A stretch of DNA of 64,000 nt from Pseudogymnoascus verrucosus (GCA_001662655.1 KV460210.1), one strand, 5' to 3'; counted from the stretch's first letter, positions 1,865-42,248 are shown. Numbers and translations are program-made. The notes: generated by a model from the letters alone, not told the origin.

Positions 1865-2029
1865 AGTCTGGTTGCGTTGCCCTGTGCCGCCTTCAGCAAG
1901 TTGAAAGCTTAATGCGATAAAACGGCAGGTTGTTGCAGAATAGTATTAGGCGTCTTGTCGATCATAAAATAGATCGCTTATTACAATACATGCATCATCT
2001 CTCGAAGAATTGAGCTAGTGCGCAAAGCA

Positions 2030-3430
2030 TCAAACTGCCAGCAGCGGCTTGCCGTCCCTTTCCCAGGCTTTGGCATTTTCCAGCCAACATCCCGGCTTGT
2101 TTTTCCATAGCTCTTTAAGAAAAGATATCACAACTTCGTAATTTCTAAAGCCAGTCTTCTTGATAATGTCCCCGTACCACTTTAATACCAGATGCTGCTT
2201 TTCCTCACAGCCGTGGCATTCAGTTCCTGCAATGAAAACCGGCCACGTCAAGTGTTGGATCAGCGCATCGTTACATGCGCAGTTTTCCAATTTCTCAAAC
2301 AGCTCCTGCATAGTGAGAAACATCTCAGCATCTGCAGGTGTGAAGTTGTAAACACACTGGTACGCGTACAACAGTGCCGCAATGTGATGAACGTCAACAA
2401 GGTGGATGAAGTTTAGGCGAGTAGATTCATCGCCAAGAGCTGCTGATGTCGCCGCGCTCATTAAGGTGAGACCACGAGTCTTCTCAAACTGGATCCGCAG
2501 GGCAGCTGGAGTAGGAACTCTGTGCGCAGCCGTACCTATGTCTGTGATGTAGAGTGTGACTTGATGAATAAGTTTCATATACTCCGACAATAGGGCTTCC
2601 GGGTCACCATGCCTTGGTAGCACCACATCATCGATCCCAAGGTAGAGGCATGTCGTCGTTGACGCTAAGACGTCATGAATTGAAAACTGACCTCGTAGAA
2701 ACCTGAACAGCTCGCTTGACTCAGCGCTAGAATCTGAAAATCCGTTGACGAGGAGGCGTGCACCGAGCCGATGCGAGCACCATGCTGTAGACGTGTCTCC
2801 AATGCACTCATAGTTAGAAAGGATGAGCATCGCGGCCAGGATCCATTCCGCAGTCTCTAGGTCCAAGATTTCTCGCGGCTCTTCACAGCCGACGCGCTCT
2901 GTGATTCTGGAGAGCTCTTGCGTTATTCTCAAAACAACCACATCCCGTGCCTTGGGAGCAAATGCAACGATTGATGGTTGTGTAGGGCCCATGTGCTCGG
3001 CCGATACAGCAAGTATCGCAAGCAATATGATGGGCGATGATCTCGCCTTGGGCACAACAAGCCGCCTGTAAGGATTCAAAGGCGAATCTACCCAAACCAT
3101 GTTTCCAGCGATTCGTCTCGAGTAGTAAGAGACTAAATGCTCAATTTCGCTTGCGTTTGGCGCTTCGGCGGCCATTTTGGCTATCTTTGCAGCAGCCTCA
3201 GCCCAGGATGACTTTGACGGCACTGACAATCCGTCAGCGGGCACGACATCCTGAGACGCATCCTTAGGGTATTGCAGTCCTTTGAAACGGCCACGTACTG
3301 CTACAGCATTTGCCCATCGTAGGTTTCGTCCATAACCGGGGCATTCTATACTTCGCTTCATGCATTTGAGACAGGAGGGTGTGGTGCGATCACAGCGGAT
3401 CCTCCGACGGACACAGACTCTGCAATCCAT
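2030..3430 (-). CDS. Zn(II)2Cys6 transcription factor with Fungal_trans_2-type regulatory domain
   Basis: 466-aa ORF with N-terminal CRVCVRRRIRCDRTTPSCLKCMKRSIEC and C-terminal LTWPVFIAGTE motif. Confidence 0.9.
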   Translation of the reverse strand: MDCRVCVRRRIRCDRTTPSCLKCMKRSIECPGYGRNLRWANAVAVRGRFKGLQYPKDASQDVVPADGLSVPSKSSWAEAAAKIAKMAAEAPNASEIEHLVSYYSRRIAGNMVWVDSPLNPYRRLVVPKARSSPIILLAILAVSAEHMGPTQPSIVAFAPKARDVVVLRITQELSRITERVGCEEPREILDLETAEWILAAMLILSNYECIGDTSTAWCSHRLGARLLVNGFSDSSAESSELFRFLRGQFSIHDVLASTTTCLYLGIDDVVLPRHGDPEALLSEYMKLIHQVTLYITDIGTAAHRVPTPAALRIQFEKTRGLTLMSAATSAALGDESTRLNFIHLVDVHHIAALLYAYQCVYNFTPADAEMFLTMQELFEKLENCACNDALIQHLTWPVFIAGTECHGCEEKQHLVLKWYGDIIKKTGFRNYEVVISFLKELWKNKPGCWLENAKAWERDGKPLLAV

Positions 3431-5829: not shown

Positions 5830-8246
5830 ATGGCCCCCGATATCTCCAACGGCCTCAACGGCCACCCCGCCACCGACGACTCCAATGCCGAGTTATGGAG
5901 ACATCCCGACCCGACGTCGACGCAGATGCATGCTTTCAAGGAGCGTGTTAATGTTAAGTATGGGCTCAAGCTTGATCATTATGAGGAGCTGCATAAGTGG
6001 TCTGTAGAGAACATTAGTGACTTCTGGGGAGAAGTGTGGGATTTCACTGGGATCAAGGGGAATAGGGTTGATGAACCGGTAAGTGATAATTACTTTTATG
6101 TCACGTGGTTTTGTCTTTATACTTCCCTTTTCAGTATCATACAGATGTTGAGTTGGATGGGCATCTATATGCTTGAAGGCTTCTTCTCTAATGCAGCCTC
6201 TACTCCCTTTCAAATCTCTCAAGCTACCCTACTACCCCCCTTGCCACACATCACCCTCCCTCCCCCACCCCTCTAACCAACCCCCACCAACTAACACCCA
6301 CACCAGGTCCTCCCCCCCAACGCCCCCATGTACCCCCGCCCCGACTTCTTCCCCACCACCACCCTCAACTTTGCCGAGAACCTCCTTTACCCTTCTTCTT
6401 CCCCCGACCCCTCCAGTCCAGCCATCATTGAGGCCAACGAGACTTCTTCCCACCCAATCAGCTGGGCCGATCTCCGCGAGCGCGTCCGCCGCTGCACCCT
6501 CGCCCTCCAATCCCTCTCCCTCGCCCCTGGCGACCGCGTTGCCGGTTTCCTCGGAAACACAGCCAATGCCGTCGTCGCAGCGCTAGCAGCAGCGAGTATC
6601 GGCGTCGTCTGGACGGGTGTTAGTCCCGATACGGGGGTCCATGCGGTGCTAGAGAGGTTGGTGCAGATTGAGCCCAAGGTGCTGTTTGTGGATAATGGGG
6701 TTGGGTATAATGGGCGCACGCATGCGAGTGGGGTGAAGGCGAGGGGGATTGTCGAGGGGTTGAGGGGGAAGGGGTTGATGGCTGTTGTTGTGTTTGAGAC
6801 TGTGGTGGGGTTGGAGTGTGGAGTTGAGGAGTTGGCGGAGGTGATGGATGAGGGGGCGAAGGCGTGGGAGTATAAGGATTTTGTGGACAGGTATGTTTCG
6901 ATTTTATGCTTATCCCTTGGGTACTCGTCAAGCTACGTCTACAGCAGAACTAACACACACCTAGCGTCCCCAACCCATCCGCCCCCCAAACATTCACCCC
7001 CCTCCCCTCTTCCCATCCCCTCTACATCCTCTACTCCTCCGGCACCACAGGCGCCCCAAAATGCATCGTGCACTCCGCCCTCGGCACTTTGATCCAACAC
7101 AAGAAAGAACACATCATCCACGGCGACCTCCTTCCCTCCTCGCGCCTCCTCTACTACACTACCACAACCTGGATGATGTGGCACTGGCTCGTTTCCGCGC
7201 TGTCCGTCGGCTCTACAATCGTCGTCTACGACGGCTCGCCATTCCGTCCCGCGGGGGAGATGTCAATGCCCTACCTCATCGATTCGCTGAAGATTACGCA
7301 TTTCGGGACGTCGGCGAAATACCTCTCGATACTGGAGCAGAAACACACGCAGCCCCTGCTCCCGCAACCCGATGGGTCGAACGCGGCTTCCCTAGCAACG
7401 CTAAAGGCTATCTACTCCACTGGCTCCCCGCTCGCGCCGTCAACGTATAAATACATCTACGCCAACTTCCCACCTACAGTCCAACTAGCATCCATAACAG
7501 GGGGGACAGATATCATATCCCTCTTCGGCGCACCTAACCCCCTCCTCCCCGTCTACGTAGGCGAAATCCAAGGCCCCGCCCTCGGCCTCTCTCTCCTCGC
7601 CGTCTCACCCACGGGTGACCCAGTCGCGCCCTCTGAACCAGGGGATCTGGTAGCTACTGTCCCGTTCCCTGCTCAGCCTACTACGTTCTTCGGCGCAAAG
7701 GGGGATGCGAAGTATTTCGATGCGTATTTTGCCGTGTTTCCCAAGGTGTGGCATCACGCCGATTTCATCTCCTTCGTCCCGCATACCGATGCTGGGCGCG
7801 CGGGTACGAACAACGCCGCGTCAGGCCTACTGATGCTGGGACGCAGCGATGGGACGCTAAAGCCTGCGGGTGTGAGGTTCGGGTCCGCGGAGATCTACAA
7901 CATCCTTCTCGCGCACTTCCCCGAGGTCTCAGACGCCGTATGCGTCGGTCGTCGTCGCGCGGGTGACGCAGACGAGACGGTGTTGTTGTTCTGTATGATG
8001 GCGCCTGGGGAGACGTGGAGTGAAGAGCTGGGAGCGAGGATTAAGAGGGAGATTGGCACGAGGTTGAGCGCGAGGCATGTGCCGGGGGTGGTGTGTGAGG
8101 GGGGCGGGGTGCCGGTGACGGGGAATGGGAAGAAGGTGGAGGTGGCAGTAAAGAGGGTTGTTAGTGGGGTTGAAGGGGGGGTGGGGGAGAGTGTGGTTAA
8201 TAGGGAGGTTTTGGAGTGGTATCGGGAGTGGGCGGGAAAGAATTAG
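5830..8246 (+). CDS. Acetoacetyl-CoA synthetase (AMP-binding family); 3 exons
   Basis: Motifs include ELHKWSV...FWGEVWDF, LNFAENLL, ILYSSGTTGAPKCI, ITGGTDIIS, GRSDGTLKPAGVRFGSAEIY and GKKVEVAVK. Confidence 0.93.
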
Positions 8247-21636: not shown

Positions 21637-23451
21637 ATGGTTACCAAATCTAGGTGAGGCGTGCTCATCCAAAATGACACGGCGAATTTCCTCTAACGTG
21701 AACAGTTTCCCCGATATTGATGTGCCAGCTGTCGATGTCTGGGGCCTGTTATTTGAGAGGAAAGATAGGCCGTTTTCTGATAACAAAGGTGAGCCTTCAC
21801 CCAAGTTAACACGGGCATGTCAGAACTCTAATACTGCCTGCAGTAATCTACGTCGATCCCGAGACGAACCGGTCATATACTTTTGCAGAGACAAAGAAGG
21901 CTGCGATTGAATTTGGCAAGGGTCTCAAGGCTCAATGGGACTGGAAGAAGGGCGATGTTCTTGCCCTCTATACACCCAACAGCATTGACACACCAGCGGT
22001 GATATGGGGAACCCACTGGGCCGGAGGAGTGATCTCTCCTGCCAACCCAGCCTACACTCCCGCAGAATTAGCTTTCCAGCTTAAAGATTGCGGTGCCAAA
22101 GCACTTGTGACACAGAAAGCATTCCTGGCGGATGCCCGAGCTGCCGCCAAATCTGTTGGCCTTTCGGAGAAGAGGATCATTATCCTCGGAGATGAAAGGG
22201 ATGACAAATTCAAGCACTTCACTAGCATTCGGAACCTCTCGGGAGCAACAAGATATGTCAGGACACGGGTGAACCCTGAAAAGGACCTCGCCTTCTTGGT
22301 CTATAGCAGTGGCACCACTGGCCACCCAAAGGGTGTCATGCTGTCACATCGCAATATTGTGTCAAACTTATTCATGCTCGCCGCAGGGGAAGGCAATAAT
22401 TTGAGTTCCGAAGGTGGACCCGATGGCAAAGGCGATAAACTACTTGCTTTCCTTCCATTCTTCCACATTTACGGTATGGCTTCCTTTCTACTTTCTCGTC
22501 CAACAACCACTAATATGTGCAATAGGCCTTACCTGCCTTATTCATTATGCATTCTTCAGAGGCCTCACCATATATGTCATGGCTAAATTCGATCTTGAGA
22601 GATTCTGCTCCATCATCCAGGAGAATAAAATTACCTTCGCCTATGCTGTACCACCAGTGGTTCTTCAGCTTGCCAAGAACCCAGTAGTTGACAAGTACGA
22701 CCTCAGCACAATCAGAATGATGAGCTCTGGTGCAGCGCCCCTCACTCGGGAAATTGTCAACGCATTGTATGACAAGCGCAACATCAAGGTCAAGCAGGGA
22801 TATGGCCTGTCCGAGACATCCCCTACGACACACTCGCAGCGCTGGGAGGACTGGCAAACGGCCATGGGCTCAGTCGGACCCCTTCTACCCAACCAAACCG
22901 CAAAGTTCATGTCGGCCGATGAGAAAGAACTTGAAGTCGGGGAGACTGGTGAGCTATGGGTCAAGGGACCTAATGTGTTCTTGGGTTACTGGAAGAACCC
23001 TGAAGGCACGAAGAACGCGCTCACCGATGACGGTTATTTCAAGACCGGTGACGTCGGTTTCCAAGACAAGAAAGGAAACTTCTATATCACAGACCGTGTG
23101 AAGGAACTTATCAAATATAAGGGATTCCAGGTTCCTCCCGCAGAACTTGAGGGCCTATTGGTTTCGCACCCGGACGTCGATGATGTTGCTGTTCTTGGCA
23201 TCTACAATGAAGATCAGGCAACCGAGGTTCCACGAGCATATGTCGTGCCCAAGGCTGGCGTTCCTGGGACACCGGAGACAGGCAAGAGGATCGCGGATTG
23301 GCTGTCCAGCAAGGTGGCTGGCCATAAGCGCTTGAGAGGAGGTGTTAGATTTGTTGATGTGATACCTAAGACCGCGAGCGGAAAGATCCTGCGGAGGGTT
23401 CTGAAGCAGCAGGCGGAGGCGGAGGAAAAGAAGGTCAAGTCCAAGCTGTAG
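21637..23451 (+). CDS. Peroxisomal 4-coumarate/phenylacetyl-CoA ligase-like AMP-binding enzyme; 4 exons
   Basis: YSSGTTGHPKGV, QGYGLSET, GELWVKGPNV, TGDVG, DRVKELIKYKGFQV and a C-terminal PTS1 signal (SKL). Confidence 0.93.
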
Positions 23452-23594
23452 AGCTTCGCGAAATATTTGAGGGTCCATAGCGTGGTGTGTCCCTTCACAT
23501 ATAGAACCATGTATCGTATATCTGCAGCGCATATATTTCAAATAACTTTTTAAAGGCATTGATAGGTTGAATTGATTGATTTATTATTGAAATA

Positions 23595-23686
23595 TGTTCG
23601 ATCAGTTCTACAAATTTAACTCTCATCAATTCGACTAATTTGACAGCCAGATCTCAAGTTATACGCTCTTGTCATCATTTCGAACA
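23595..23686 (-). ncRNA. Box C/D-like RNA, array unit 6
   Basis: Minus strand: TGTTCGA-a-ATGATGA...TTGA-hairpin-TGATGA...CTGA-TCGAACA, with a 7-bp terminal stem. Confidence 0.75.
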
Positions 23687-23889
23687 ACCAATCTCAACTT
23701 GTTAAGTGTTATTCTCCCTCTTGAGCTCTGTTCCGTTGGAACTTGAGCTGAATCCACACTGCAAAGTAAACAATTTAGAAAATAATGTAAGCAAACTATA
23801 AGTTAAATTTCTTTAGAGGGATGAGGGATGAGGGATGAGGGATGAGTTTAAATATGAAGTAATGCTGTTATTTGAAGTAGGTTTTTTTA

Positions 23890-23987
23890 TGTTCGATCAG
23901 TACCATAAACTTAGCTCTCATCAATTCAGCCCATTTTGTGGCCAAATCTCAAAGGGACCATCTAGGAATGCTTCATCATTTCGAACA
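23890..23987 (-). ncRNA. Box C/D-like RNA, array unit 5
   Basis: Same scaffold as unit 6 (TGTTCGA/TCGAACA stem, C box ATGATGA, D' TTGA, C' TGATGA, D box CTGA) with different spacers. Confidence 0.75.
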
Positions 23988-24224
23988 GCCAGCCTCAGCT
24001 TGAATTGGGTCGTATTCCCTCTTTTGAACTCTGTTCTGTTGTTGTGACGCTGCGAAGAAAAACAATTGGAAGGGAATGTGAAGTACAGTAACTGTTGAAG
24101 TTGGTTGAAGGGATGTATTTGGATATCGAATAATGCTGTTGTTTGAAGTGGGCGTTTTTTATCTGCTGTTGACGATCTTTCAAGACTCGCAGAATAATTT
24201 CAAGACTAGGGCCTCAACGACCCA

Positions 24225-24315
24225 AACTGTTCATCAGGCCTTATGTATCTCTCGTTGACCAGTCCAACTGGACGATCTCGAGTGTGTTCAAAGCTTTATC
24301 ATCATCTGAACAGTT
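24225..24315 (-). ncRNA. Box C/D-like RNA, array unit 4
   Basis: AACTGTTCA-g-ATGATGA...hairpin GATCGTCCAGTTGGACTGGTC...CTGA-TGAACAGTT, with a 9-bp terminal stem. Confidence 0.75.
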
Positions 24316-24367
24316 ATATAAACAAAAAAACAAAAATAAATGCGAAAAGATAGAAAGAAAGAAATCA

Positions 24368-24463
24368 AACTGTTCATCAGTAAATGCTTCCGCTGTCCTC
24401 AAATCAATCCAAGTGGATGATATTGGGATTGGGTAACGGGATGGAAACATCATTTGAACAGTT
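24368..24463 (-). ncRNA. Box C/D-like RNA, array unit 3
   Basis: AACTGTTCA-a-ATGATGT...CCCAATATCATCCACTTGGATTGATTTGAGG...CTGA-TGAACAGTT. Confidence 0.7.
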
Positions 24464-24531
24464 CAATTCATATAAGCAAAAAGAAAAACAAGCAGGAATG
24501 AATGCAAGAAAAAAATATTTGAAGTAAATAA

Positions 24532-24633
24532 ATCGAACTGTTCGTCAGTGGGTGTTTCCTGTTGCCTCAAATCAATCCAAACAGATGATATTGGGATAGA
24601 GAGGGATTGATACCATCATAGGAACAGTTCGAT
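24532..24633 (-). ncRNA. Box C/D-like RNA, array unit 2
   Basis: 12-bp stem ATCGAACTGTTC/GAACAGTTCGAT, C box ATGATGG, central CCCAATATCATCTGTTTGGATTGATTTGAGG and D box CTGA. Confidence 0.7.
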
Positions 24634-24695
24634 GTATATACAATAAAAGAAAAAAAAAAACAAGAAGTAAATGGTGAAAGATCGGTGAAATAAAT

Positions 24696-24800
24696 AAATC
24701 AAACTGCTCATCAGCAATTTTTCAGGGTACCTCAAATCAATCCAAATGGATGATGTTGGGAACAAGTAGTAGTATTACCATCATCTGAACAGTTTGATTT
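24696..24800 (-). ncRNA. Box C/D-like RNA, array unit 1
   Basis: 15-bp stem AAATCAAACTGTTCA/TGAGCAGTTTGATTT (one U-G wobble on the minus strand), C box ATGATGG, central CCCAACATCATCCATTTGGATTGATTTGAGG and D box CTGA. Confidence 0.7.
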
Positions 24801-24841
24801 GTATGCAGCAAAAACAAAAGCAAAGAAAAGATTGGAAGAAG

Positions 24842-25057
24842 TGTGGAAGAGGAGCTGTGGAAGAAGAACTGCGGGAGATGAACTGTGGAAGAACAACTGC
24901 GGAAGAAGGTCTGGTGTAAATACACAAACCAAGATCAAAGCCAATGAAGGATAAGATCAAGGCAGGGTATGTACAAGAAGGCAGAAGAATTGTTGTGCAA
25001 TACACAAACCAAGATCGAAATCCAATGAAGGATAGACCGAGGAAAGGTATATGTAAG
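24842..25057. repeat. Leader repeats: five imperfect 14-bp units (TGYGGAAGAAGAAC, 24842-24909) and a degenerate duplication with 80-bp period (24919-25057)
   Basis: Seen directly; TACACAAACCAAGATC occurs at 24921 and 25001. Confidence 0.85.
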
Positions 25058-25170
25058 GAAAGAGGATAGAAGGTTCGACAGGACACCGCTTGGTGGCAGG
25101 ACAAAAGAAAGAAAGGAAATGAGGAACAAAAAAAGAGGAAGAAGAACAAGAAGAGGGGGGGGGGAGGGGG

Positions 25171-25178
25171 TATTTATA
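25171..25178 (-). promoter_or_regulatory. TATA box (TATAAATA) upstream of the C/D-like array
   Basis: Minus-strand GGTATAAATACCCC followed by a CT-rich tract typical of fungal Pol II promoters. No protein ORF of credible composition lies downstream. Confidence 0.55.
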
Positions 25179-26715
25179 CCCAGGTGGCTGATTTCGAAAT
25201 CGCTAAGCGCGCTGATATTCACTTTAAGCGCGACTCTCACGGCTTCATGTCATTGGACAGAAGCGAAAGGTGAAGGGCGGGCAAACACTGCAAACAATTG
25301 CTAGCTCCTGATAATTGTTGGAAGTTGTGGTTAGACCAGTAGCCTAGGGCCTCAGTTACTGAGACGTTGCGCGTTGAGGTGAGTTTCTGTCGCTGAAAGG
25401 GTGAATAGGGGAAATTTCGTGCTGACCAGCACAGACGGTGGGATATGTCAAGCTAAGGGTAATTTTGGAGATGCTACAGTGCAGTGTTTGCCATACTCGA
25501 GGTAGGAGCTCTATAGCCTTTACTTCATATTCTACAATAGATTCTTCTACACCATACAAGGAAATCACATACAAAACGAGGGTTTACATAAATAAAACAA
25601 ACCCGGCTAGTGGCCTCCAAGGCTCATATTCTTATTCATGACCTTGTCAAAACACACAAAGGTAACATAACCACATCAAATGCACATCGATATCTGAAGA
25701 AAATATATTAAATGGGAAGGACCAAGTTTATAGATCTATGAATGCGAGCCACCACCCCCGAATTACTTGGCAAGGTTTGCTATCTCTCCGCCTTAATGAT
25801 GTAGGCCCCGTCTACTATGGATGGCAGGTACAGGACGGAACACCAGCGCCACTACAATATCCAAGACCAAGATATCCCAGGATGAGGCCCACACTCTCTA
25901 TATCGAACCCAGAAACCCTAAATTGACTTATCCAGAAACCCATGTGCCAAGCAGGGTGATCAGCAGTGGTAGCACCAGAGTAATAAATACCCGTGGGAGA
26001 CGCGACCAGCCCAACTACCAACGCATACAACATGCGCATTCCAAACCAAACGTTGAAGCATATCGATATAGTAGCGTGTGTGCATAAATGCCACGCAGAG
26101 ATAGCCAACGAAATACTGATGGGTCCTCCTCGGCCGAGTCCGAGATGGTGGCTTCGGAGCGGAGCATTACTATATGCAGTATATCGCATCAAGCAACACT
26201 CCATATCGCGCTTCTCCTTCACAAAGGACCCCGTTCGGTTGGTACCGACAGGTTTAAAGCGCATCGCGGCATAGCTGAATGACGAACCTCACGCCATGAA
26301 ACCGCGCGGCAGCGTTCAGGTGGTGGTAAGAAGTCAGCGCACAATTTCTCAACAGCCGGCTATCGAGAGATCGGCTCTATGCGTTTCGACGCGCCCCCAT
26401 CGTCCGGACGGCTCATCCACGATTGCTCGCAAATAAGCCATCTTTCTTATGTCTGCCTGCCTGATGACAGTATTGAGTTCTGGACATATTGGTGCCTTTT
26501 AACGTGATGCCCAGCACTAGCGGATTCAAGTGATTATTTTCTCTTGGACACTTGTAGTAGTTTGTGCCATATTAACAGAAAATGCGTGCTTCCCTCGTCC
26601 GACCCGCAATGGAACGATGTCCATCTAAAAAAGCGACTTACTTTGTAGGCTTTTTGCCTTATACTAAAGTCTGTTCTAGACGGGTTGCGGTTGTCGTACA
26701 ACATCCCTGAAGGCT

Positions 26716-29364
26716 TCAGCCTACAAATTCGCCACTTGCAAGCATTTCCCAGGGCTTGCCAGTATCCCAAACGTTTTGGATCAGGTTCCGTGCCTTTCTA
26801 ACCTTTGATGGAGTTTAGTAGTTGCTATTGTTACGGGATGGTTGTCATTCTTACCTGGCTCATCCCAATGCCTTCGACATTTCTCATCCTCTCCATTATA
26901 AAGCTCCGTTCCTCCGCATCCTGTGCATCGCACCCAGCACTAAACATGGGGAAAAGTAGGCATGCTTCTGCTGCAGACGCCTTTCTTACCCTGTGAAGAA
27001 GGCTAACAATCTCCCGCACTGCGGTTTGGACATCTTTGTCGGTCGATGGCTTGCCCAAAACCCGACGGTGCAAATGAATAAGACCAGCCCAGTGATATGC
27101 TTCATTTGTGGCAGCCATTTCGCGGCTATCCCACTGATATGTCTCTTCTTCTGACGAGTGTAGATGCGGACAATGCTGAATTAAAGAGCTAGTCCTTGCA
27201 TGTTCGAGATCTTCGAGTAGCTGTTCGGCTTGTTGTCTGACATCGTCTGCTGGTTGCCACCCGAGCCGTTCATTGCAGGTATCGTCGAAGCGCCTAGGAG
27301 CACACAGTGCAGCAAGATCTGCAATCTTGGATAAAATGGATGCGCATCGGCTTGTAAAACCAAGAAGACAGACGATCTGAAGACCATGCTCTCCTTCACT
27401 GTCATAAGCTACCAGACCCTCTGTTATGGACAGGAAGTTTTTATGTCCACCAGTAAGCCTACCCAGAACGCCGAGGTAGGCAAACCACCTTAATAGAAAG
27501 CCAAAGGTAGCTGAAATTTCACTGTTGGGGTTCGCTTCTCCTCGAGCAACAATCAGCTGCCTTGCTACAGTTAGATGTTGCTGCCACGGAATTTCGACCC
27601 CGAAGGCCTTGGGGCATATGATCTCGAGAGAGGCCAACATTATGGCCCCCGCAAGACATGAGTCAGTAACGATTTTCTTAGGATCGTCGATGGCGTCGCG
27701 GAGATACGAAAAGAACCCCTGGACCCATAGAGAAATTCTTGTTATTGGTTCTCGGTGGTTCAGGAGCCGAGCCCGGTGAGATGCAGAGTATGCCAGCACC
27801 AACTTCATCAAATGACTGCACTGCAGTGCCATTTGTGGCAAAATCTTTTGGAATGGATTTGAGCTACAATGGTGAGGAACGAGAAGTCTAACAAATTAGC
27901 TTGATTCCAGATGCGAGTATAGTAGTACTCACGTCGCAGTATGTGAAATAAAATGGTGGAAATAAAGGACATTCATTGGGTTCTCTTGTAGTATCGGCGG
28001 CAAAGGGTGGAATGATCGAGGAATTTTGACCCAGACCGGACTGATGGCATTAGTTTTGCGCTTTTGCATGGACATGGAGGTTTACCTTTCATAGTAACCG
28101 CCCTTTTCGAAGGCAGCCACTTTCGTTTGCTGGCCAAAACTAAAATCAAGATTGCTATATTCTTTCGAGATGGCATTTGCATCATCGTTCTTTCCAATAT
28201 CCAAATCTCTGAGCCCTTTGTCAACTCCCAAAGTAATAATGTCATCACGCGGATCTCCATATGGAAGAGGCGTTTGCTCTCTGCTAGTGGAGCCAGCAGT
28301 GCCCATGGCATTTGACATCCCAGGGGGACCAGAGAGCAGAGAGTCAATGGAAAGTCTTCGCCATTCGGACAGATGACTACCATTGGATGTGAGTGGCGCA
28401 AGCTTAACGGAGAGGCTTCGCTGCCCATCGTCACTTTGAGACGATGTTGACATTGGCGCGAAGGGCTGGCTAAAATGAATTCCGGTATTATAACGAGACG
28501 ACGAAGGGATGGGAAGTGCCATCTCTGTGAACCGAGAGTGGATTTCACTACTGGATGGCCCATAGCGGATCCGTTTCGAGGACCGTGTATCGCCTGCAAA
28601 ATCCACAAATGAGCTGCCCGTTGGACTTTCCATACCTGATTCCGAAGGTGATTTTATGCCATGCTCATCACGATATCTCTCATAGCTCTGCTCGAATGGT
28701 TGGGTATATAACGAGTTCAGAGACCCGTATTGAAATGGCGGAGATGCGCAAGGTTGCTGAGCATCCTGACCCGTTAATACGGGATCTATGGATATGATGT
28801 CTGTGGGTGGCTCCTTGATAGAGTCCAAACTTGGCGGTTCCATACCCCATGTTGCCAGCTTTGGGACGGTAGTATTCGAAGCCTTCTCAGTGCGGCGGTA
28901 TGAGTCGGTATGAGTCGGTACCTGGTCTGCAACATGCTCTCGGCTTGATGGTCGTGTGCCATAATATGTTCCGCTCAGCGGAGAGATGGACGCTTCGACT
29001 TTTACGGCCTCTTTCGGAGAGACGTCAAAATCAGCAGAGAGTGTATTGACATGGAAAATCGTCTGTCTCCCGCCTGTCGTCTCAGCCTTCCTCTTCCCTC
29101 TCCCATCCCAGTTCAACCGCACGCTATAGTCGCACACCTCATTCTGTCGCTGGCAACTGAGACATGTCGGGTGCGCCTCGTCGCACTTAACTTTTCGAGC
29201 TTTGCAGGGCCTAGGCAGAGATGGTCAGCGGCCATCACTTGCATTTAAAAGGTGACACGCGCAACCTCGCTGACTCAGCACGAAACAACGAATAGAACGT
29301 ACCAGCAACCATTTCTGCTGCGCTTCTTGGGCTCTGGCGCCCCAGGTTTCTTTGGGCGTGGCAT
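26716..29364 (-). CDS. Zn(II)2Cys6 transcription factor with Fungal_trans_2 domain; 5 exons
   Basis: MPRPKKPGAPEPKKRSRNGCW|PCKARKVKCDEAHPTCLSCQRQNEVC, then NPFQKILPQMAL and LLFPMFSAGC; last exon ends GEFVG*. Confidence 0.9.
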
Positions 29365-37754: not shown

Positions 37755-38627
37755 ATGTGGCATGGACAGGAGAACCCGGCTGTATTATGAGAAGGGGATT
37801 GCTAATGGCGAAGCCACTGTACCATAACCTGCCTTAATCACTTCGTAGTGACAATGAATGCACTCATGGTCGGGAACAAGGTGTAACTTGCCCATACAGT
37901 TTACGTAGTAATGCACTGATAGAGCCGAGTACAAATACAAGTGTTCAGTATTACATGTGCACCAAAGTCCAGCGAAGAAGAAATGCATTAGGAAGTAGGC
38001 TGCCAATGATGGATTCAATTTTATTATGAAATTCCCTACTTGGGCGAGTAGACAAAGGCCCCAATTCTTCAGCATGTGTGTCTTTAATATTGAGACAGCA
38101 CTGTGTGGATAAATTATAAAAAATTGTCGTCGGATGTGCGACTGCACTATAAATTCCGTGTTTTAAGGCTGATTGAAATACTACACTACACTGCCACGTC
38201 GGAGATTCAAGTAATTCCAGCAGCACAAAATCAATATTACAGATATTTTATAGAGTACGTAAACAATGTATACGGGAAGTTCTGAACCATCTGAAATTTG
38301 AAGCCTGTAGAATCGTAAGGAAAAGGTAATAAAGACTTGGGCTTCGTCAGCTCGCGATTCAGAATGCTAAACCCTGTCGCACAAGTTGAAACGCTCGCTC
38401 CCTCCCCCAACCTCGAGTTTATTTTGTGCGACACACAACACATACATTACTCGCACTCGAGTCGCTTTCTCTCCCCTTTAAACCATTGCTCGCAATTACC
38501 TATTGCTGTTATTGTCGAGAATTTGCGATACCAGTCCATCTGACGACTTCGAAGCCGCCGCTTGGGTGACCTGAGTCGATCTTGTCAAGTGCCAGGCACC
38601 GTACGGCGTGTTATTTCATGTCCCATC

Positions 38628-41600
38628 ATGCCGCGACGGCCTCCCGCCGAAGGGACTGCCGCGAATAGAATCCTCCTCGCGGTAGTGATATTACTCTTAC
38701 CATGGCTCATCGATGCTCAGCAGCAGCAGCAAAACGCGGGTCGTGATGTTGGAGACCAATACAAGTCACCACGCGAGGCCATCAAGGCGGACCCCATTGC
38801 GACCCTTGAGGCCACCACGCTCGGAAACAAAGCACAACGCCTCGAGTCGCCAGTGAACGCAGGTCGAGCGAAAGGCACACCAGGTGCAAATAAAAACAAA
38901 AGAGAAAATAATGGAAACGATGCGAGCGCTATCGCAGCTTTTGCTCCGGCGGGATCCGCCGTTCGAGCACCATCCACAGGACGATCCAGCATAGAGAATA
39001 ATGCTGGGCTCTCGCCGCAATCTGCGCGGAGTCTTGAGGATTGGGATGTAGAAGACTTTGTGCTTCTTGCGACCGTCGACGGGAAGTTGTATGCCCGAGA
39101 TAGGAAGACTGGGACACAACGGTGGGCCCTGGACGTTGACAGACCCGTTGTACAAACCACATACCACGAAAGGAACGGAACCGATGGCGAAGAGCATCAG
39201 CCTGTGGATGACTATCTTTGGATTGTCGAACCAAGTGCTGATGGCAGTCTCTTCGTTTATATCCCCAGCGGCCCCCAACCAGGGCTGGTCAATACGGGTC
39301 TCACCATGAAGAAATTGGTTGAGGAAATGGTGCCATACGCCGATACCGAGCCTGCTGTGGTCTATACTGGCGACAAGGTAACCTCACTGTGGACAATCGA
39401 TGCCAGGAACGGAGCAGTGCTTAAATGGTTTGGATCCGCGGGCTCGTTCAGCCCAGGAGAAGCCACATGCGACCGCCCAGATGGTTTTCAAGATCCGGAT
39501 GGTGAGGAATGTAGCACTCGAGGGACCTTGACATTGGGTCGAACCGAATACACAGTCGGCATTCAGGGAAAGGATGGTCATCCTATCGTCACTCTCAAAT
39601 ACGCAGAGTGGGGTCCGAACAATTATGACCAGGATCTATTACGCCAACACCGGAGCACCCTCGATGGGAAGTATATGTATAGCAGCCACGACGGAGGAGT
39701 GTTCGCATACGACTTAACTCGGTCGAAAGATAGAGGTGCCTTATACAATGCAAGGCTCCCGTCGCCGGTTATACGAGTCTTTGACGTAGCCCGTCCTGTG
39801 GATGCCGACACGAAGAATCCCGAACTTATCATCCTTCCTCAGCCAATACCACCCTTGGTGGATGACAGTCATGAAAGTATCCGCCATGCCCGGATATTTG
39901 TCAACCACACCGAGACCGGAGACTGGTATGCAATGTCTGGTAATAGCTACCCATTGGTTATCGACGGCCCCGAACAGGCACAGTGCGATACGGCGAATTG
40001 GTTGGAACGTGCGCGCTTCCATGAGCCGATGAACAATGCCCAGCTTCAAAAGGCACTTGTTGGACTTCACTCAATCGATGGCCGTAGACACGAGCCTCTG
40101 TTGACTATATCCGGACCAACCGATCAGGATGACAAATTGCAAAGCGAGAACGAAACTATTCATAAAGATGCAGTTGCAAATATGACATCCCCAGCGCTGG
40201 GCCCCAAACCATCAGTTCTATATCATGTCCGACAGCTTCCAACAACAGCAGTGACGAGTATAATTGAACTCGTTAATAATCCAATTACTACACTCCTACT
40301 CCTGACGCTACTGTTTTGGTACAACAGAGACATAGCCCGATGGATCAAGTCAACCTGCAACAAGTACATCAACATAATTTCAAAGCTCACGGGAAGGCTA
40401 GAAGAGGACGAAGACGTTGATGACTTCTCGAATATCGATGCGCCACTCAAACAGGATGCACCGGCTCCCGAAACTCTTCCGGATGTGGCAACGGTGGGAA
40501 GCTCAGACTCGTCGGACGATGCTAAGCCAACTGAAACGAAGAAACAAGATGGAAAACTAGCAGATGTGTCCACTGAGGCCCGCCGAGAACCGCTGGGAGA
40601 AGTTAACGCAAACGACGGTTCGCGTCCACCGAAGCAACCCAAGCCCGAAGGCAAAAAAGCTCACCGTGGAAAACGTGGTGGTCTCAAGCACAAGAAAGGG
40701 CAGAAGCAGACTCCGGTCTCAGATGGACCAATTCCATCATCTCCTGCTACCGTTGAGGATGCAGTCCGTGACGCAAAAATGCTTGGAGGGACTACCCGCA
40801 TTGAGCCAGATGTCGAAACTCTACCTAATGGTGTCAATGAAATCTCGGGCCCAATCCTACGCATGAACAGCCTCGAGGTTAACATGGATAAGCTTATTGG
40901 GACAGGAAGCAATGGCACAATGGTTTTCGAAGGCAAATTTGACGGACGAGATGTAGCAGTGAAGAGGATGCTCATCCAATTCTTTGAAATTGCATCCCAG
41001 GAGACGAAGCTCTTACGAGAAAGTGACGATCATCCTAATGGTATGCACCCAACCAAGTTATATATTGACCTCAGCAAGCTAACAATTTGGCCAGTTATCC
41101 GATACTATGCCCAGCAACAAAGCCAAGGATTCCTCTATATTGCGCTTGAGCTGTGCTCTGCATCTTTGGCAGATGTTATTGAAAAGCCGCAACTTCATCG
41201 CGACCTTGCACAAAGCGGAGAACGAGATCTTCCTAATGTTCTTTACCAGATAACCAATGGCCTCCAACATCTCCATAACCTTCGGATTGTGCATCGCGAT
41301 CTCAAGCCCCAGAATATCCTGGTCTCAATGGGTAAAGACGGCAGGCCTCGACTTTTAGTCTCCGATTTCGGACTCTGCAAGAAGCTCGAAGGCGAACAAT
41401 CAAGCTTCCGCGCTACCACTGCCCATGCAGCTGGTACATCTGGCTGGCGTGCCCCTGAACTCCTCCTAGACGACGACCTTCGCGAAGGCTCGGTTACGGC
41501 CATGGAGTCCACCCTCTCTAGCAGCCACAGCACATCAGGGATACCACTTGTCTCTGGTGATCTAATGCACAATCGCCGCGCCACTCGGGCCATTGACATC

Positions 41601-42248
41601 TTCTCACTTGGGCTGGTCTTCTTTTACGTACTCACTAAGGGATCTCATCCTTTCGATTGCGGCGATCGGTATATGCGAGAAGTCAACATTCGCAAAGGCG
41701 AATATAAGCTCAGCCCGCTTGATGTTCTTGGCGACTATGCTTTCGAAGCTACCGACCTCATCAGGTCTATGCTCGAGCAGGTGCCAAAGGCTCGTCCGAC
41801 CGCGAGGCAAGTGATGTCCCACCCGTTTTTCTGGTCGGCCAAGAAGCGCCTAAACTTTCTTTGCGACGTCTCAGATCATTTTGAAAAAGAGAAGAGGGAC
41901 CCTCCGAGTGACGCACTTATCGAGCTTGAGAGATGGGCGCCGGAAATTACTCGTGGAGACTTTATGAAACCACTCGGGAAGGAGTTTACGGATTCTCTGG
42001 GGAAGCAGAGGAAGTATACTGGTTCAAGATTGTTGGATCTGCTGAGAGCGCTCAGGAACAAGAAGAACCATTATGAGGATATGTCAGACAAGTTGAAGAA
42101 GGACGTAGGTCCTTTACCTGAGGGGTATCTGAGCTTCTGGACAAGGAAGTTCCCAAACCTACTCATTGGTTGCTGGAATGTTGTGTATGAGGTTAGATGG
42201 GATGAAGTGGATCGATTCAGAGAGTACTATGAGCCAGCATTGCTATGA
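38628..42248 (+). CDS. IRE1: Ire1 ER-stress sensor kinase/endoribonuclease; one 54-nt intron (41041-41094)
   Basis: Signal peptide, luminal LLATVDG domain, transmembrane helix, kinase motifs (GTGSNG, HRDLKPQN, SDFG) and KEN RNase motif (LLRALRNKKNHY). Confidence 0.96.
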   Translation: MPRRPPAEGTAANRILLAVVILLLPWLIDAQQQQQNAGRDVGDQYKSPREAIKADPIATLEATTLGNKAQRLESPVNAGRAKGTPGANKNKRENNGNDASAIAAFAPAGSAVRAPSTGRSSIENNAGLSPQSARSLEDWDVEDFVLLATVDGKLYARDRKTGTQRWALDVDRPVVQTTYHERNGTDGEEHQPVDDYLWIVEPSADGSLFVYIPSGPQPGLVNTGLTMKKLVEEMVPYADTEPAVVYTGDKVTSLWTIDARNGAVLKWFGSAGSFSPGEATCDRPDGFQDPDGEECSTRGTLTLGRTEYTVGIQGKDGHPIVTLKYAEWGPNNYDQDLLRQHRSTLDGKYMYSSHDGGVFAYDLTRSKDRGALYNARLPSPVIRVFDVARPVDADTKNPELIILPQPIPPLVDDSHESIRHARIFVNHTETGDWYAMSGNSYPLVIDGPEQAQCDTANWLERARFHEPMNNAQLQKALVGLHSIDGRRHEPLLTISGPTDQDDKLQSENETIHKDAVANMTSPALGPKPSVLYHVRQLPTTAVTSIIELVNNPITTLLLLTLLFWYNRDIARWIKSTCNKYINIISKLTGRLEEDEDVDDFSNIDAPLKQDAPAPETLPDVATVGSSDSSDDAKPTETKKQDGKLADVSTEARREPLGEVNANDGSRPPKQPKPEGKKAHRGKRGGLKHKKGQKQTPVSDGPIPSSPATVEDAVRDAKMLGGTTRIEPDVETLPNGVNEISGPILRMNSLEVNMDKLIGTGSNGTMVFEGKFDGRDVAVKRMLIQFFEIASQETKLLRESDDHPNGMHPTKLYIDLSKLTIWPVIRYYAQQQSQGFLYIALELCSASLADVIEKPQLHRDLAQSGERDLPNVLYQITNGLQHLHNLRIVHRDLKPQNILVSMGKDGRPRLLVSDFGLCKKLEGEQSSFRATTAHAAGTSGWRAPELLLDDDLREGSVTAMESTLSSSHSTSGIPLVSGDLMHNRRATRAIDIFSLGLVFFYVLTKGSHPFDCGDRYMREVNIRKGEYKLSPLDVLGDYAFEATDLIRSMLEQVPKARPTARQVMSHPFFWSAKKRLNFLCDVSDHFEKEKRDPPSDALIELERWAPEITRGDFMKPLGKEFTDSLGKQRKYTGSRLLDLLRALRNKKNHYEDMSDKLKKDVGPLPEGYLSFWTRKFPNLLIGCWNVVYEVRWDEVDRFREYYEPALL

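Follow-up and report, generated by a model that had tools for sequence, protein, structure and literature searches.

The box C/D cluster

The 64-kb stretch of Pseudogymnoascus verrucosus DNA analysed here (the window) contains six box C/D units, u1 to u6, on its minus strand at positions 23595-24800. The cluster has genes for an acyl-CoA ligase and a Zn2Cys6 factor as its neighbours in the window, and no credible protein-coding ORF was found across it, the ORFs there being short or of low complexity only. A scan of both strands for R-UGAUG-N followed by CUGA, with a closing stem of 6 bp or more, yielded six candidates in the 64 kb, all of which were u1-u6, while the same scan of block-shuffled sequences yielded 0.46 candidates on average and 2 at most (50 runs). 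Every unit carries the eukaryotic boxes AUGAUG[G/U/A] and CUGA, has a terminal stem that joins C and D, and is 91-108 nt long. The unit periods from u1 to u6 are 165, 166, 148, 326 and 301 nt, and the spacers measure 12-20 nt. The preliminary description of the locus had announced six guide-type box C/D RNAs on the minus strand, with a period of about 145-170 nt for u1-u4 and 12 spacer strings, all of which were recovered as quoted; its size range of 91-105 nt was right at the lower bound and too low at the upper one.

An Rfam search of the whole window at gathering thresholds gave no matches, and thus no unit reached the threshold of any family. At E <= 10, the region 23400-25000 yielded six weak and generic C/D matches, none of them to u1-u3. 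The best of these sub-threshold matches was that of u6 to snoR64 (25.6 bits, E 0.049; gathering 45), and u5 matched SNORD116 weakly (18.7 bits, E 4.8; gathering 35). The unit sequences had no occurrence in the literature text searched.

Structure of the units and linkers

In u1 (24696..24800, minus strand, as are all units and linkers; 105 nt), the C box AUGAUGG at 24784-24778 and the D box CUGA at 24714-24711 are joined by a 15-bp terminal stem and enclose a degenerate D' (CCAA) and a central hairpin; the unit folds at z -4.44 and scores 107.9 bits with a covariance model of u1-u4. A U-rich linker (24634..24695) separates it from u2 (24532..24633, 102 nt), which has its C box at 24619-24613, its D box at 24548-24545 and a 12-bp stem (z -3.35, 106 bits). 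Beyond a second U-rich linker (24470..24531) lies u3 (24362..24469, 108 nt), with C at 24453-24447, D at 24380-24377 and a 15-bp stem that includes G-U pairs (z -4.31, 104.4 bits). The third U-rich linker (24316..24361) leads to u4 (24225..24315, 91 nt), with C AUGAUGA at 24305-24299, D' UCGA at 24281-24278, D at 24237-24234, an internal hairpin and a 9-bp stem (z -2.45, 72 bits). The last two units are paralogues with 7-bp stems: u5 (23890..23987, 98 nt) has C AUGAUGA at 23979-23973 and D at 23900-23897, and u6 (23595..23686, 92 nt) has C at 23678-23672 and D at 23605-23602; in both, a D' box UUGA and a C' box UGAUGA are joined by an internal hairpin.

The C and D boxes are thus perfect in each unit, and u4-u6 add a D'/C' pair joined by a hairpin. 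The internal hairpin is retained in u1-u3, where the GA of D' has been lost (CCAA, as against U[C/U]GA in u4-u6). The C' boxes are an odd UGAUUUGA in u1-u3, of a CGAGAG type in u4 and UGAUGA in u5 and u6. Degenerate C' and D' boxes are described as frequent in fungi in the N. crassa study (PMC2780460). Folding was clearly better than that of shuffled sequences for u1-u3 only, with z values of -2.5 for u4 and -0.3 for u5 and u6.

Putative host transcript

Upstream of the cluster on the minus strand, we read a CCAAT motif at 25252..25256 and, about 370 nt upstream of u1, a TATAAATA motif at 25171..25178; the former may act as a promoter element and the latter as a Pol II TATA box. No promoter motif for filamentous fungi is given in PMC4138321. 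The pyrimidine-rich (C/T) stretch between the latter motif and u1 (24801..25170, minus strand) would be the leader of a non-coding host transcript. It contains a direct repeat spaced by 81 nt that carries donor-like GTTTGT sites, and 5.3 copies of a 14-nt repeat (24835-24908), the units of which end in CAG; its sole ORF (24781-25173) encodes 130 aa of low complexity. An AATAAA motif at 23580..23585 on the same strand, 10 nt past u6, is a possible 3'-end signal. No splice signals were seen around u1-u4. The splice signals around u5 and u6 are weak, as are the donor-like sites for a long intron with u1-u4.

Scaffold, spacers and duplication history

To quantify the divergence among the units, we compared their parts separately. 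The central 31-nt element is identical at 28-29 of 31 positions (90-94%) among u1-u3, in line with the 2-3 differences first noted, and the terminal stems are less conserved (69-93% identity). Spacer identities among u1-u3 are 42-65% for A and 44-59% for B, which is the level of shuffled sequences; the sole pair to exceed this level, and only slightly, is u2 and u3 (p 0.05 and 0.037). The initial observation of a kept scaffold with dissimilar spacers is borne out by these values. The linkers have mutual identities of 63-68%, compared with 58-59% in shuffles.

A series of A-U in u1, G-C in u2 and G-U in u3, which had also been claimed, is real and is located at stem pair 10. Compared with u4, u5 and u6 have one extra G-C stem pair that was inserted on both strands. 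Together, the compensatory pair and the compensatory inserted pair suggest that selection acts on the stems at the level of structure.

The six units do not form the uniform family that had been proposed. The covariance model, built from u1-u4 only (MAFFT misaligned the 3' ends of u5 and u6), matched these four units at 72-108 bits along with three antisense shadows, and missed u5 and u6 at E <= 10. There are two sub-families, one of u1-u3 with a diverged u4 and the other of the u5/u6 pair. The latter is part of a tandem duplicate (23560..24222, minus strand) with two copies of about 300 nt, each comprising about 190 nt of upstream flank and either u5 or u6. The copies are 71-73% identical, with 187 identical columns, 44 transitions and 31 transversions in an alignment of 262 columns. 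Few columns align within spacer A of this duplicate, which is 20 nt in u5 and 14 nt in u6. No unit period of the array was detected by TRF.

Repeat-induced point mutation (RIP) was considered as a cause of the divergence and rejected, with a TpA/ApT index of 0.58 and a (CpA+TpG)/(ApC+GpT) index of 1.5.

Since divergence of the linkers almost equals that of the spacers, the duplicates are presumably old, and drift or retargeting would be enough to account for their differences. With spacers only at the shuffle level and linkers similarly diverged, the pattern is accounted for by old duplication and a constrained scaffold, and diversifying selection need not be invoked.

A related locus in P0121

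The reading frame across u3-u4 matches P0121, a JGI 'hypothetical protein' and the single related locus found, with 85% identity over 72 residues. This comparison involves a single translated ORF at a short distance and shows non-synonymous-type changes only. On this measure, spacer A, the central element and spacer B of u3 have one detectable change each, and there are no detectable changes in the 22 codons from the stem to C' of u4. The linker between the two units has at least five substitutions and four codon-sized insertions (12 nt) in its middle, its last ~17 nt being unchanged. The D-side spacer B of u4 is altered by substitutions and a 1-nt indel. As regards spacer turnover, which the preliminary description had put forward as a check, u4 spacer B differs in P0121, and both spacers of u3 and u4 spacer A are kept. 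The annotated start of the P0121 protein falls within the C box of the orthologous u3.

A translated search with the u1 ORF found no relative among 16 candidates. For the u5 ORF, the 728-aa bacterial-type repeat protein P0122 was rejected as a chance match that shares a short common motif only.

Search for guide targets

We compared the spacers with a panel of eukaryotic rDNA present in bacterial assemblies, recovered by means of the ITS4 primer (59 loci). The panel includes a plant repeat with complete rRNAs (L035), 18S and 5.8S genes of Pezizomycotina (L016, L038) and positions 1-2200 of Pezizomycotina LSU (L007, L004), and its LSU 3' third is from plant only. Against these borrowed plant and Pezizomycotina rRNAs, none of the 12 spacers beat its shuffled versions (RNAduplex, 100 shuffles, p 0.13-0.94), nor did a string that stood in for the central element (p 0.59). 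Nothing over chance emerged from the panel in an exact-run scan, in ungapped scoring (30 shuffles), in a gapped antisense alignment (40 shuffles) or in a box-anchored scan of all 59 loci. With this borrowed panel, 0 of the 12 guides formed an antisense duplex of 10 nt or more in guide register.

The strongest panel scores were those of the u5 region against 18S 1374-1389 (33.5, with a null maximum of 32) and of u5 spacer B (p 0.13). In conserved 18S, u5 has two possible pairings of 10 bp: one begins at position 1 upstream of D' and includes a G-U, and the other begins at position 2 upstream of D and is all Watson-Crick. Neither exceeds chance (p 0.13 and 0.34), with 1.5-3 comparable matches per shuffled guide. 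The targets of snR72-78-type clusters are 18S-A28, 18S-U578, 25S-C2197, G2288, C2959, A876 and U2421. A search for the corresponding guides gave no significant antisense of any kind, nor any of 11-12 nt or more in guide register, in fungal 18S, in fungal LSU 1-2200 or in plant LSU 1883-3401. The nearest case, a match of u6 spacer A to the 5' end of 18S over 11 positions with one mismatch and two G-U pairs, is no better than chance.

The D' guide of u4 has an 11-nt core, GCUUUGAACAC (24284..24294, minus strand; positions 3-13 upstream of D'), that is antisense at 11 of 11 positions, and in the correct register, to the ES6 region of the eukaryotic 18S consensus (Rfam SSU). The nucleotide that faces guide position 5 is a G, which is not known to be 2'-O-methylated in yeast or human. 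The family-wise chance of this match is 3.05% (2000 shuffles), the reference being the consensus and yeast and not the 18S of the host. The core is also perfectly antisense to yeast 18S as represented by a primer in the text of PMC9176245, and the single Pezizomycotina 18S in the panel (L016) differs from the u4 complement at 3 of 11 positions. A check of an Arabidopsis paper (PMC8351944), which concerned a different region, showed none of six queried position names. As the u4 D' guide fits ES6, at least u4 is, judging from the match, probably an ordinary rRNA methylation guide, for an 18S ES6 G that is not a known site in yeast.

Comparison with known snoRNA clusters

Two studies describe it as the rule in filamentous fungi that C/D snoRNAs are clustered in non-coding host genes (PMC2780460; PMC2377427). 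The snR72-78 cluster of yeast and its Ascomycota counterpart, clusters I-VI of N. crassa and two clusters of A. fumigatus likewise consist of several C/D snoRNAs on the same strand. Such clusters, like the one described here, are reported to span 1-1.5 kb and to be part of a non-coding transcript made by Pol II, with protein genes on either side (PMC5824354; PMC2780460; PMC2377427). Six units in about 1.2 kb is also the number and size that the snoRNAome paper gives for a conserved Pezizomycotina cluster (PMC5824354). The conserved Ascomycota cluster consists of unrelated snoRNAs with fixed targets, whereas the units here would be paralogues of one another. In N. crassa there is one snoRNA per intron, unlike u1-u4, which lack flanking splice signals.

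Nearly all snoRNA families in fungi are said to be single-copy in PMC5824354. The sole C/D family named there as having several paralogues kept in Leotiomycetes is CD_41 (AM921940 = Afu-298), which is stated to be absent from Saccharomycotina. Table 1 of PMC2377427 gives Afu-298 as a 93-nt intergenic C/D RNA, initially an orphan. The cluster and CD_41 are alike in that both have several Leotiomycete paralogues.

The mammalian SNORD113/114 and SNORD115/116 arrays are likewise made up of paralogous C/D units arranged in tandem within a non-coding host, and have no rRNA complementarity. Copies of SNORD113/114 differ in their antisense regions. These imprinted arrays differ from the cluster in having tens of copies, one per intron, and in being tissue-specific, and have no sequence kinship with it. 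Plant polycistronic clusters, with which the work of Barneche et al. is reportedly connected, resemble the cluster in that tandem duplication gives rise to paralogues whose scaffold is retained and whose guides are new or changed, and their units are separated by U-rich spacers. They belong to another kingdom and usually mix unrelated C/D and H/ACA genes. Such plant clusters are covered in the N. crassa paper (PMC2780460).

Interpretation of the cluster

The best explanation, which we hold with good confidence, is a lineage-specific non-coding Pol II gene of about 1.6 kb (~25140-23560, minus strand) with six tandem-duplicated box C/D snoRNAs in a Leotiomycete. The cluster is a lineage-specific case of a well-known kind of RNA gene and not a new guide-RNA system.

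By analogy with snoRNP biology, the C/D motif of each unit would form a kink-turn, to which Snu13 would bind first, followed by Nop58, Nop56 and the methyltransferase Nop1. Loading of these proteins had been proposed before and follows naturally from the perfect C/D motifs, as far as sequence can tell. Outer stems of 12-15 bp would aid snoRNP assembly in the precursor. Cleavage within the U-rich linkers may free u1-u4 from the polycistronic transcript, and u5 and u6 might, at a guess, be released by splicing or debranching, after which exonucleases would trim the units up to the bound proteins. The stretch just 5' of D or D' would pair with the target, and the nucleotide opposite the fifth guide position would be 2'-O-methylated. 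Guides other than that of u4 may have divergent parts of the host rRNA, snRNA, tRNA or nothing as partner. The kept scaffold and differing guides would reflect old duplicates in which the parts needed for assembly are under selection and each guide is kept or lost. This model gives no account of the central element, which is the best-kept part of u1-u3 despite a D' without GA and an odd C'.

It is possible, if somewhat unlikely, that most of the units are orphan C/D RNAs that have non-rRNA targets (snRNA, tRNA, pre-rRNA spacers or mRNA) or that act through the central element. The higher conservation of the central 31 nt than of the stems does suggest a sequence-specific role, while the string standing in for it was no more complementary to rRNA than shuffles were. 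Of the 12 spacers, 11 yielded no rRNA target. Spacer A of u1 resembles the antisense of the U2 branch-site region, with a known methylated A opposite position 5; this resemblance is interrupted by one bulged base and lies beside a degenerate D'. No tRNA genes were found in the 64-kb window, and there were no matches or complements of at least 12 nt to the spacers elsewhere in it, both of which argue against targets nearby. Filamentous fungi are reported to have C/D RNAs directed at U2 and U6 as well as sites predicted in tRNAs (PMC2780460; PMC5824354), and nine A. fumigatus C/D RNAs were initially reported to be orphans (PMC5824354; PMC2377427, Table 1).

We consider it unlikely that all six units guide rRNA methylation at lineage-specific sites and that their targets were missed only as an artefact of the foreign rRNA used. 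The choice of reference clearly matters, since the borrowed L016 18S hid the 11-nt match of u4 that was found in the consensus and in yeast, and since the LSU 3' third was plant-derived. The two minimal 18S matches of u5 are correctly placed, yet they occur at chance level. More predicted sites are reported for N. crassa than for yeasts in PMC2780460, but rRNA is mostly conserved and guides for core sites should have been visible, which was the case for none of the 12. Furthermore, u1-u3 have no usable D' box, and the changes and 1-nt indel in the D-side spacer of u4 in P0121 are unlike those of a working guide.

A broader proposal is that of an evolvable C/D family in Leotiomycetes, with tandem births, a fixed scaffold that includes the sequence-conserved central element and its non-canonical C'/D' motif, and guides that were retargeted, some of them beyond rRNA (for example to U2 or mRNAs); we regard it as quite unlikely.

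That several units are decaying snoRNA pseudogenes in a transcript kept for one or two working copies is very unlikely in our view. Decay would fit the degenerate D' of u1-u3, the spacers without a target, the folding of u5 and u6 no better than that of shuffles and the unstable spacer B of u4 in the P0121 comparison. It is at odds with the perfect C and D boxes of all six units and with stems maintained with a compensatory pair and a compensatory inserted pair. The central element of u1-u3 has remained at 90-94% identity while the linkers drifted to near the shuffle level, u3 and u4 are better kept than their linker in P0121, and the RIP indices show no repeat-induced mutation.

The preliminary description had favoured an undescribed eukaryotic array similar to the TIGR arrays of prokaryotes, perhaps with another Nop-domain protein as its partner. 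Archaeal C/D sRNAs and TIGR-Tas do share with the cluster the order C, guide, D', C', guide, D and the fifth-position rule, a layout that is universal to dual-guide C/D RNAs. The TIGR paper (PMC12045711) derives the archaeal and TIGR layouts from Nop-domain binding and notes clustered snoRNA arrays in archaea, plants, yeast and vertebrates. As described there, TIGR arrays are long and regular, keep their repeats within a locus, adjoin a Tas (Nop-domain) gene and target DNA (PMC12045711). The cluster differs in its kink-turn-type C/D motifs, in the long terminal stem that each unit has of its own, in lying behind eukaryotic CCAAT and TATA motifs, in a guide that fits rRNA and in having no Tas-like gene among the ORFs scanned. 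No Nop, fibrillarin or nuclease-effector domain was found in 38 ORFs of at least 110 aa selected from the 112 listed for the window. A diversifying counterpart of TIGR or CRISPR, with spacers swapped or selected to differ, is extremely unlikely: dual spacers at the shuffle level between elements kept at 90-94%, the unlike length of spacer A within the 71-73% duplicate of u5 and u6, the fast change of u4 spacer B between relatives and the lack of an Rfam family all suit it, but there are merely six units in two sub-families, no repeats are kept across the locus (the u1-u4 model misses u5 and u6, and TRF shows no unit period), linkers are almost as diverged as spacers, P0121 retains both u3 spacers and u4 spacer A, and the u4 guide fits 18S with no spacer match elsewhere in the window.

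Significance

No new class of RNA-guided system is opened by the locus. If the cluster corresponds to CD_41, it has already been catalogued. The P0121 case illustrates that snoRNA loci are being mis-annotated as proteins. Were the retargeting reading true, the array would show the birth of guides and the switching of targets in nature, within one locus. Drift and switching of guides among paralogues are treated as rare in fungi in the fungal snoRNAome paper (PMC5824354). If the preferred explanation of a lineage-specific snoRNA gene is true, the cluster would be a compact case of snoRNA paralogues in which the scaffold persists and the guides drift or change targets, and it predicts one new 2'-O-methylation, at a G in the ES6 region of 18S. 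It would also add a new lineage-specific set of C/D snoRNAs for Pseudogymnoascus and its relatives, the small RNAs of which are barely annotated.

Organization and genomic setting of the array

The full signature of a box C/D snoRNA was found in six units on the minus strand between positions 23595 and 24800. When both strands of the 64 kb were scanned for R-UGAUG-N followed 45-125 nt on by CUGA, with a flanking stem of at least 6 bp, six candidates were obtained, all of which were units of the array (u1 to u6, in order along the minus strand), as compared to a mean of 0.46 and a maximum of 2 candidates in 50 block shuffles. The six-unit observation is therefore confirmed, far beyond chance, and every spacer string quoted in the preliminary description was present as given. 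The units are located at 24800-24696 (u1, 105 nt, terminal stem of 15 bp), 24633-24532 (u2, 102 nt, 12 bp), 24469-24362 (u3, 108 nt, 15 bp), 24315-24225 (u4, 91 nt, 9 bp), 23987-23890 (u5, 98 nt, 7 bp) and 23686-23595 (u6, 92 nt, 7 bp), with C-box to C-box spacings of 165, 166, 148, 326 and 301 nt from u1 to u6.

The array is situated in a gap of about 3.4 kb between the 3' ends of an acyl-CoA ligase gene with AMP-binding domains on the plus strand (ORFs at 21810-23451) and a Zn2Cys6 factor gene on the minus strand (ORFs at 26831-29224). A cyclophilin-WD gene located 5 kb away shows 93-96% identity to Pseudogymnoascus proteins, which places the fungus among the Leotiomycetes, near this genus. 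Directly seen on the minus strand upstream of the array are a CCAAT motif (25256-25252), a TATAAATA motif (25178-25171) and a C/T-rich leader in which short repeats of two types occur, and an AATAAA motif lies 10 nt past u6. The ORFs across the region are all short or of low complexity. With promoter-like and 3'-end-like motifs and no solid ORFs, the locus thus looks like the non-coding host genes or polycistronic genes for snoRNAs reported in N. crassa and A. fumigatus (PMC2780460, PMC2377427), and we infer from the sequence that it is transcribed and processed.

One of the leader repeats, at 24835-24908, is a 14-nt tandem repeat in 5.3 copies with a 28-nt super-period, the units of which read on the minus strand as a pyrimidine run followed by CAG, like splice acceptors in a row. 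The other, at 24918-25040, is an element of about 35 nt present twice, 81 nt apart (CCTTCATTGG.TTT.GATCTTGGTTTGTGTATT on the minus strand), each copy of which contains a donor-like GTTTGT site and may represent an alternative first-exon end of the putative host transcript. The window has a normal fungal gene content, including a second AMP-binding gene of the acyl-CoA ligase type (6295-8243), separate from the one at 21810-23451, and genes for an IRE1-type kinase/RNase (38544-42245), a ZNF598-type RING protein, a CCT subunit, eIF2A, ATP11 and an AA9 LPMO.

Paralogy and selection within the array

Comparisons of identity by segment identified u1-u3 as close paralogs. The identities among these three units were 90-94% for the central 31 nt, 69-93% for the halves of the terminal stem, 42-65% for spacer A, upstream of D', and 44-59% for spacer B, upstream of D. 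The spacer values were at the level of same-composition shuffles, with only the u2-u3 pair marginally higher (p 0.05 and 0.037), and the U-rich linkers were 63-68% identical versus 58-59% in shuffles (p at most 0.033).

A covariance model built from u1-u4 and searched against the window scored u1-u3 at 104-108 bits and u4 at 72 bits; beyond these it yielded only three antisense shadows in the window and missed u5 and u6 at E ≤ 10. The latter two are the halves of a separate tandem duplicate of about 300 nt, into which some 190 nt of upstream flank are incorporated and which contains 187 identical positions, 44 transitions and 31 transversions in 262 aligned columns. The array is therefore composed of 3+1+2 units rather than six equals, a duplication history that is directly visible in the alignments. 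The u6 copy of the duplicate carries a perfect 7-nt repeat in 4.4 copies (23816-23846; minus-strand unit CATCCCT) that the u5 copy lacks.

Selection at the level of structure is visible at two places: stem pair 10, which is A-U in u1, G-C in u2 and G-U in u3, and an extra G-C pair in u5 and u6 relative to u4, inserted on both strands. Compared with shuffles, folding was much better for u1-u3 (z -4.4, -3.4 and -4.3), moderately better for u4 (z -2.5) and no better for u5 and u6 (z -0.3). In u4-u6, an internal hairpin connects a D' box of the form U[C/U]GA to a C'-type motif, while u1-u3 have kept the hairpin with CCAA in the D' position, the central 31 nt being conserved to the extent noted although this D' lacks GA. 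Repeat-induced point mutation was rejected as the source of the divergence (TpA/ApT 0.58, (CpA+TpG)/(ApC+GpT) 1.5). No special mechanism is needed for the contrast between conserved scaffold and differing guides, since the linkers show the duplications to be old and the paralogs share constraint only on the parts involved in snoRNP assembly.

Sequence conservation in a relative

We also searched proteins with the translation of 24244-24462 (minus strand), which extends from the C box of u3 to spacer B of u4. A single match was obtained, the 87-residue hypothetical protein P0121 (source jgi, on a 13-kb contig), which is 85% identical to the query across 72 residues. No relative was recovered in similar searches that used the u1 and u5 ORFs. 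The P0121 reading frame opens with the second ATG in a C box and spans two snoRNAs, orthologous to 24190-24450 in the window. Because its start falls inside a C box, it is a spurious gene call over the orthologous snoRNA locus of a close relative. Comparing codon by codon, by which only residue-altering changes are seen, we counted one change each in spacer A, the central element and spacer B of u3, none in the 22 codons from the stem to C' of u4, including spacer A, and at least five changes plus 12 inserted nucleotides in the u3-u4 linker; spacer B of u4 contained substitutions and a 1-nt indel, and the D box and 3' stem of u4 were unchanged. Over this short distance, and in these small numbers, the u3 spacers and the 18S-matching guide of u4 were thus preserved no less well than the scaffold, and better than the linker, and the D-side spacer of u4 was not kept. 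The last 17 nt or so of the linker (24316-24332, minus strand; TTTTTTGTTTATATAAC) are unchanged in the relative, with the indels in the middle of the linker, and a TATAT motif is also found ahead of u2 and u3; this linker end may be a processing signal.

Relationship to known systems

Dual-guide C/D RNAs all have their elements arranged as C, guide, D', C', guide, D. The locus had been likened, as a possible new eukaryotic guide-RNA system, to TIGR arrays, the defining features of which are a neighboring Tas gene and regular repeats that are conserved along the array locus. In the present case, no Nop or fibrillarin domain was detected in any of the 38 scanned ORFs of the window, the covariance model separated two sub-families instead of uniform repeats, and TRF saw no array at the locus. 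In the description of TIGR-Tas, tigRNAs and snoRNAs alike are traced to one mode of Nop-domain binding, and snoRNA clusters are noted for archaea, plants, yeast and vertebrates (PMC12045711). The TIGR-like reading is therefore not supported, and we file the locus as a box C/D snoRNA cluster of a known kind, which is new or possibly already catalogued.

No Rfam family reached its threshold anywhere in the window. At E ≤ 10, there were six weak generic C/D matches of 11.7-25.6 bits (thresholds 35-45), which fell on u4, u5 and u6 and left u1-u3 without any, and the unit sequences did not occur in the literature searched. The snR72-78-type cluster, conserved across Ascomycota, likewise has six units, which in Pezizomycotina occupy about 1.5 kb (PMC5824354), but guides for its targets were absent from the spacers of u1-u6 when compared with borrowed rRNA, and the array is therefore not that cluster. 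By description, it could belong to the same family as CD_41 (AM921940), the paralogs of which persist in Leotiomycetes in a survey where fungal C/D families are almost always single-copy (PMC5824354); AM921940 is Afu-298, a 93-nt intergenic C/D RNA listed initially as an orphan (PMC2377427, Table 1).

Predicted targets

For the target analysis, we assembled an rRNA panel from eukaryotic rDNA contaminating bacterial assemblies, recovered by the ITS4 primer site in at least 59 contigs (L001-L059). The panel included a complete plant rDNA repeat (L035), 18S and 5.8S from Pezizomycotina (L016, L038) and Pezizomycotina LSU to about position 2200 (L007, L004), so that the 3' third of the LSU is covered by the plant sequence. 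Several assemblies contained many contigs of about 300 nt ending just beyond the ITS4 site, which looks like carry-over of ITS amplicons, and L035 and L028 are plant rDNA within gut-bacterium MAGs.

None of the 12 spacers paired better than its own shuffles with the borrowed plant and Pezizomycotina rRNA (RNAduplex p 0.13-0.94), nor did the central-element stand-in string, and ungapped, gapped and box-anchored scans of the same sequences agreed. Positions 3-13 upstream of the D' box of u4 (24284-24294), on the other hand, are a perfect 11-nt antisense to the Rfam eukaryotic SSU consensus, and the guide also matches yeast 18S, as read from a primer sequence spanning the ES6 region (PMC9176245). 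In the Pezizomycotina 18S sequence L016 (2033-2060, ES6 region), 3 of the 11 positions in the pairing stretch differ from the consensus, which shows how easily a snoRNA target is missed with rRNA from another organism; in this panel, one or more real candidates were masked in this way. A perfect 11-bp duplex starting at positions 1-3 arose by chance in 3.05% of 2000 trials with 12 shuffled guides and 5.4 kb of rRNA. We predict that u4 probably guides 2'-O-methylation of 18S; no target is assigned to the other five units. The nucleotide opposite position 5 of the u4 D' guide is a G, which is not known to be methylated in yeast or human.

Two minimal matches of u5 to conserved 18S, in the right register, were both at chance level. 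Spacer A of u1 resembles a complement of the U2 snRNA branch-site region and would place the methylated A of that region opposite position 5; the pairing is broken by one bulged base and adjoins the degenerate D'. A C/D RNA for U2-A31 is described in N. crassa (PMC2780460, section 6). We regard the pairing of u1 with U2 as a lead and not a result.

Proposed working and significance

By analogy with established snoRNP biology, each C/D pair in the precursor would form a kink-turn, helped by the long outer stems, on which Snu13, Nop58, Nop56 and Nop1 would assemble. Endonucleases would cut within the U-rich linkers and exonucleases would then trim the fragments to the mature RNAs, in which the guide adjoining D or D' would select the nucleotide for 2'-O-methylation. 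The locus is of modest interest for the one new 18S methylation predicted for u4, and provides a neat case of how snoRNA paralogs evolve, in a group of fungi for which paralogy of this kind has been described as rare.
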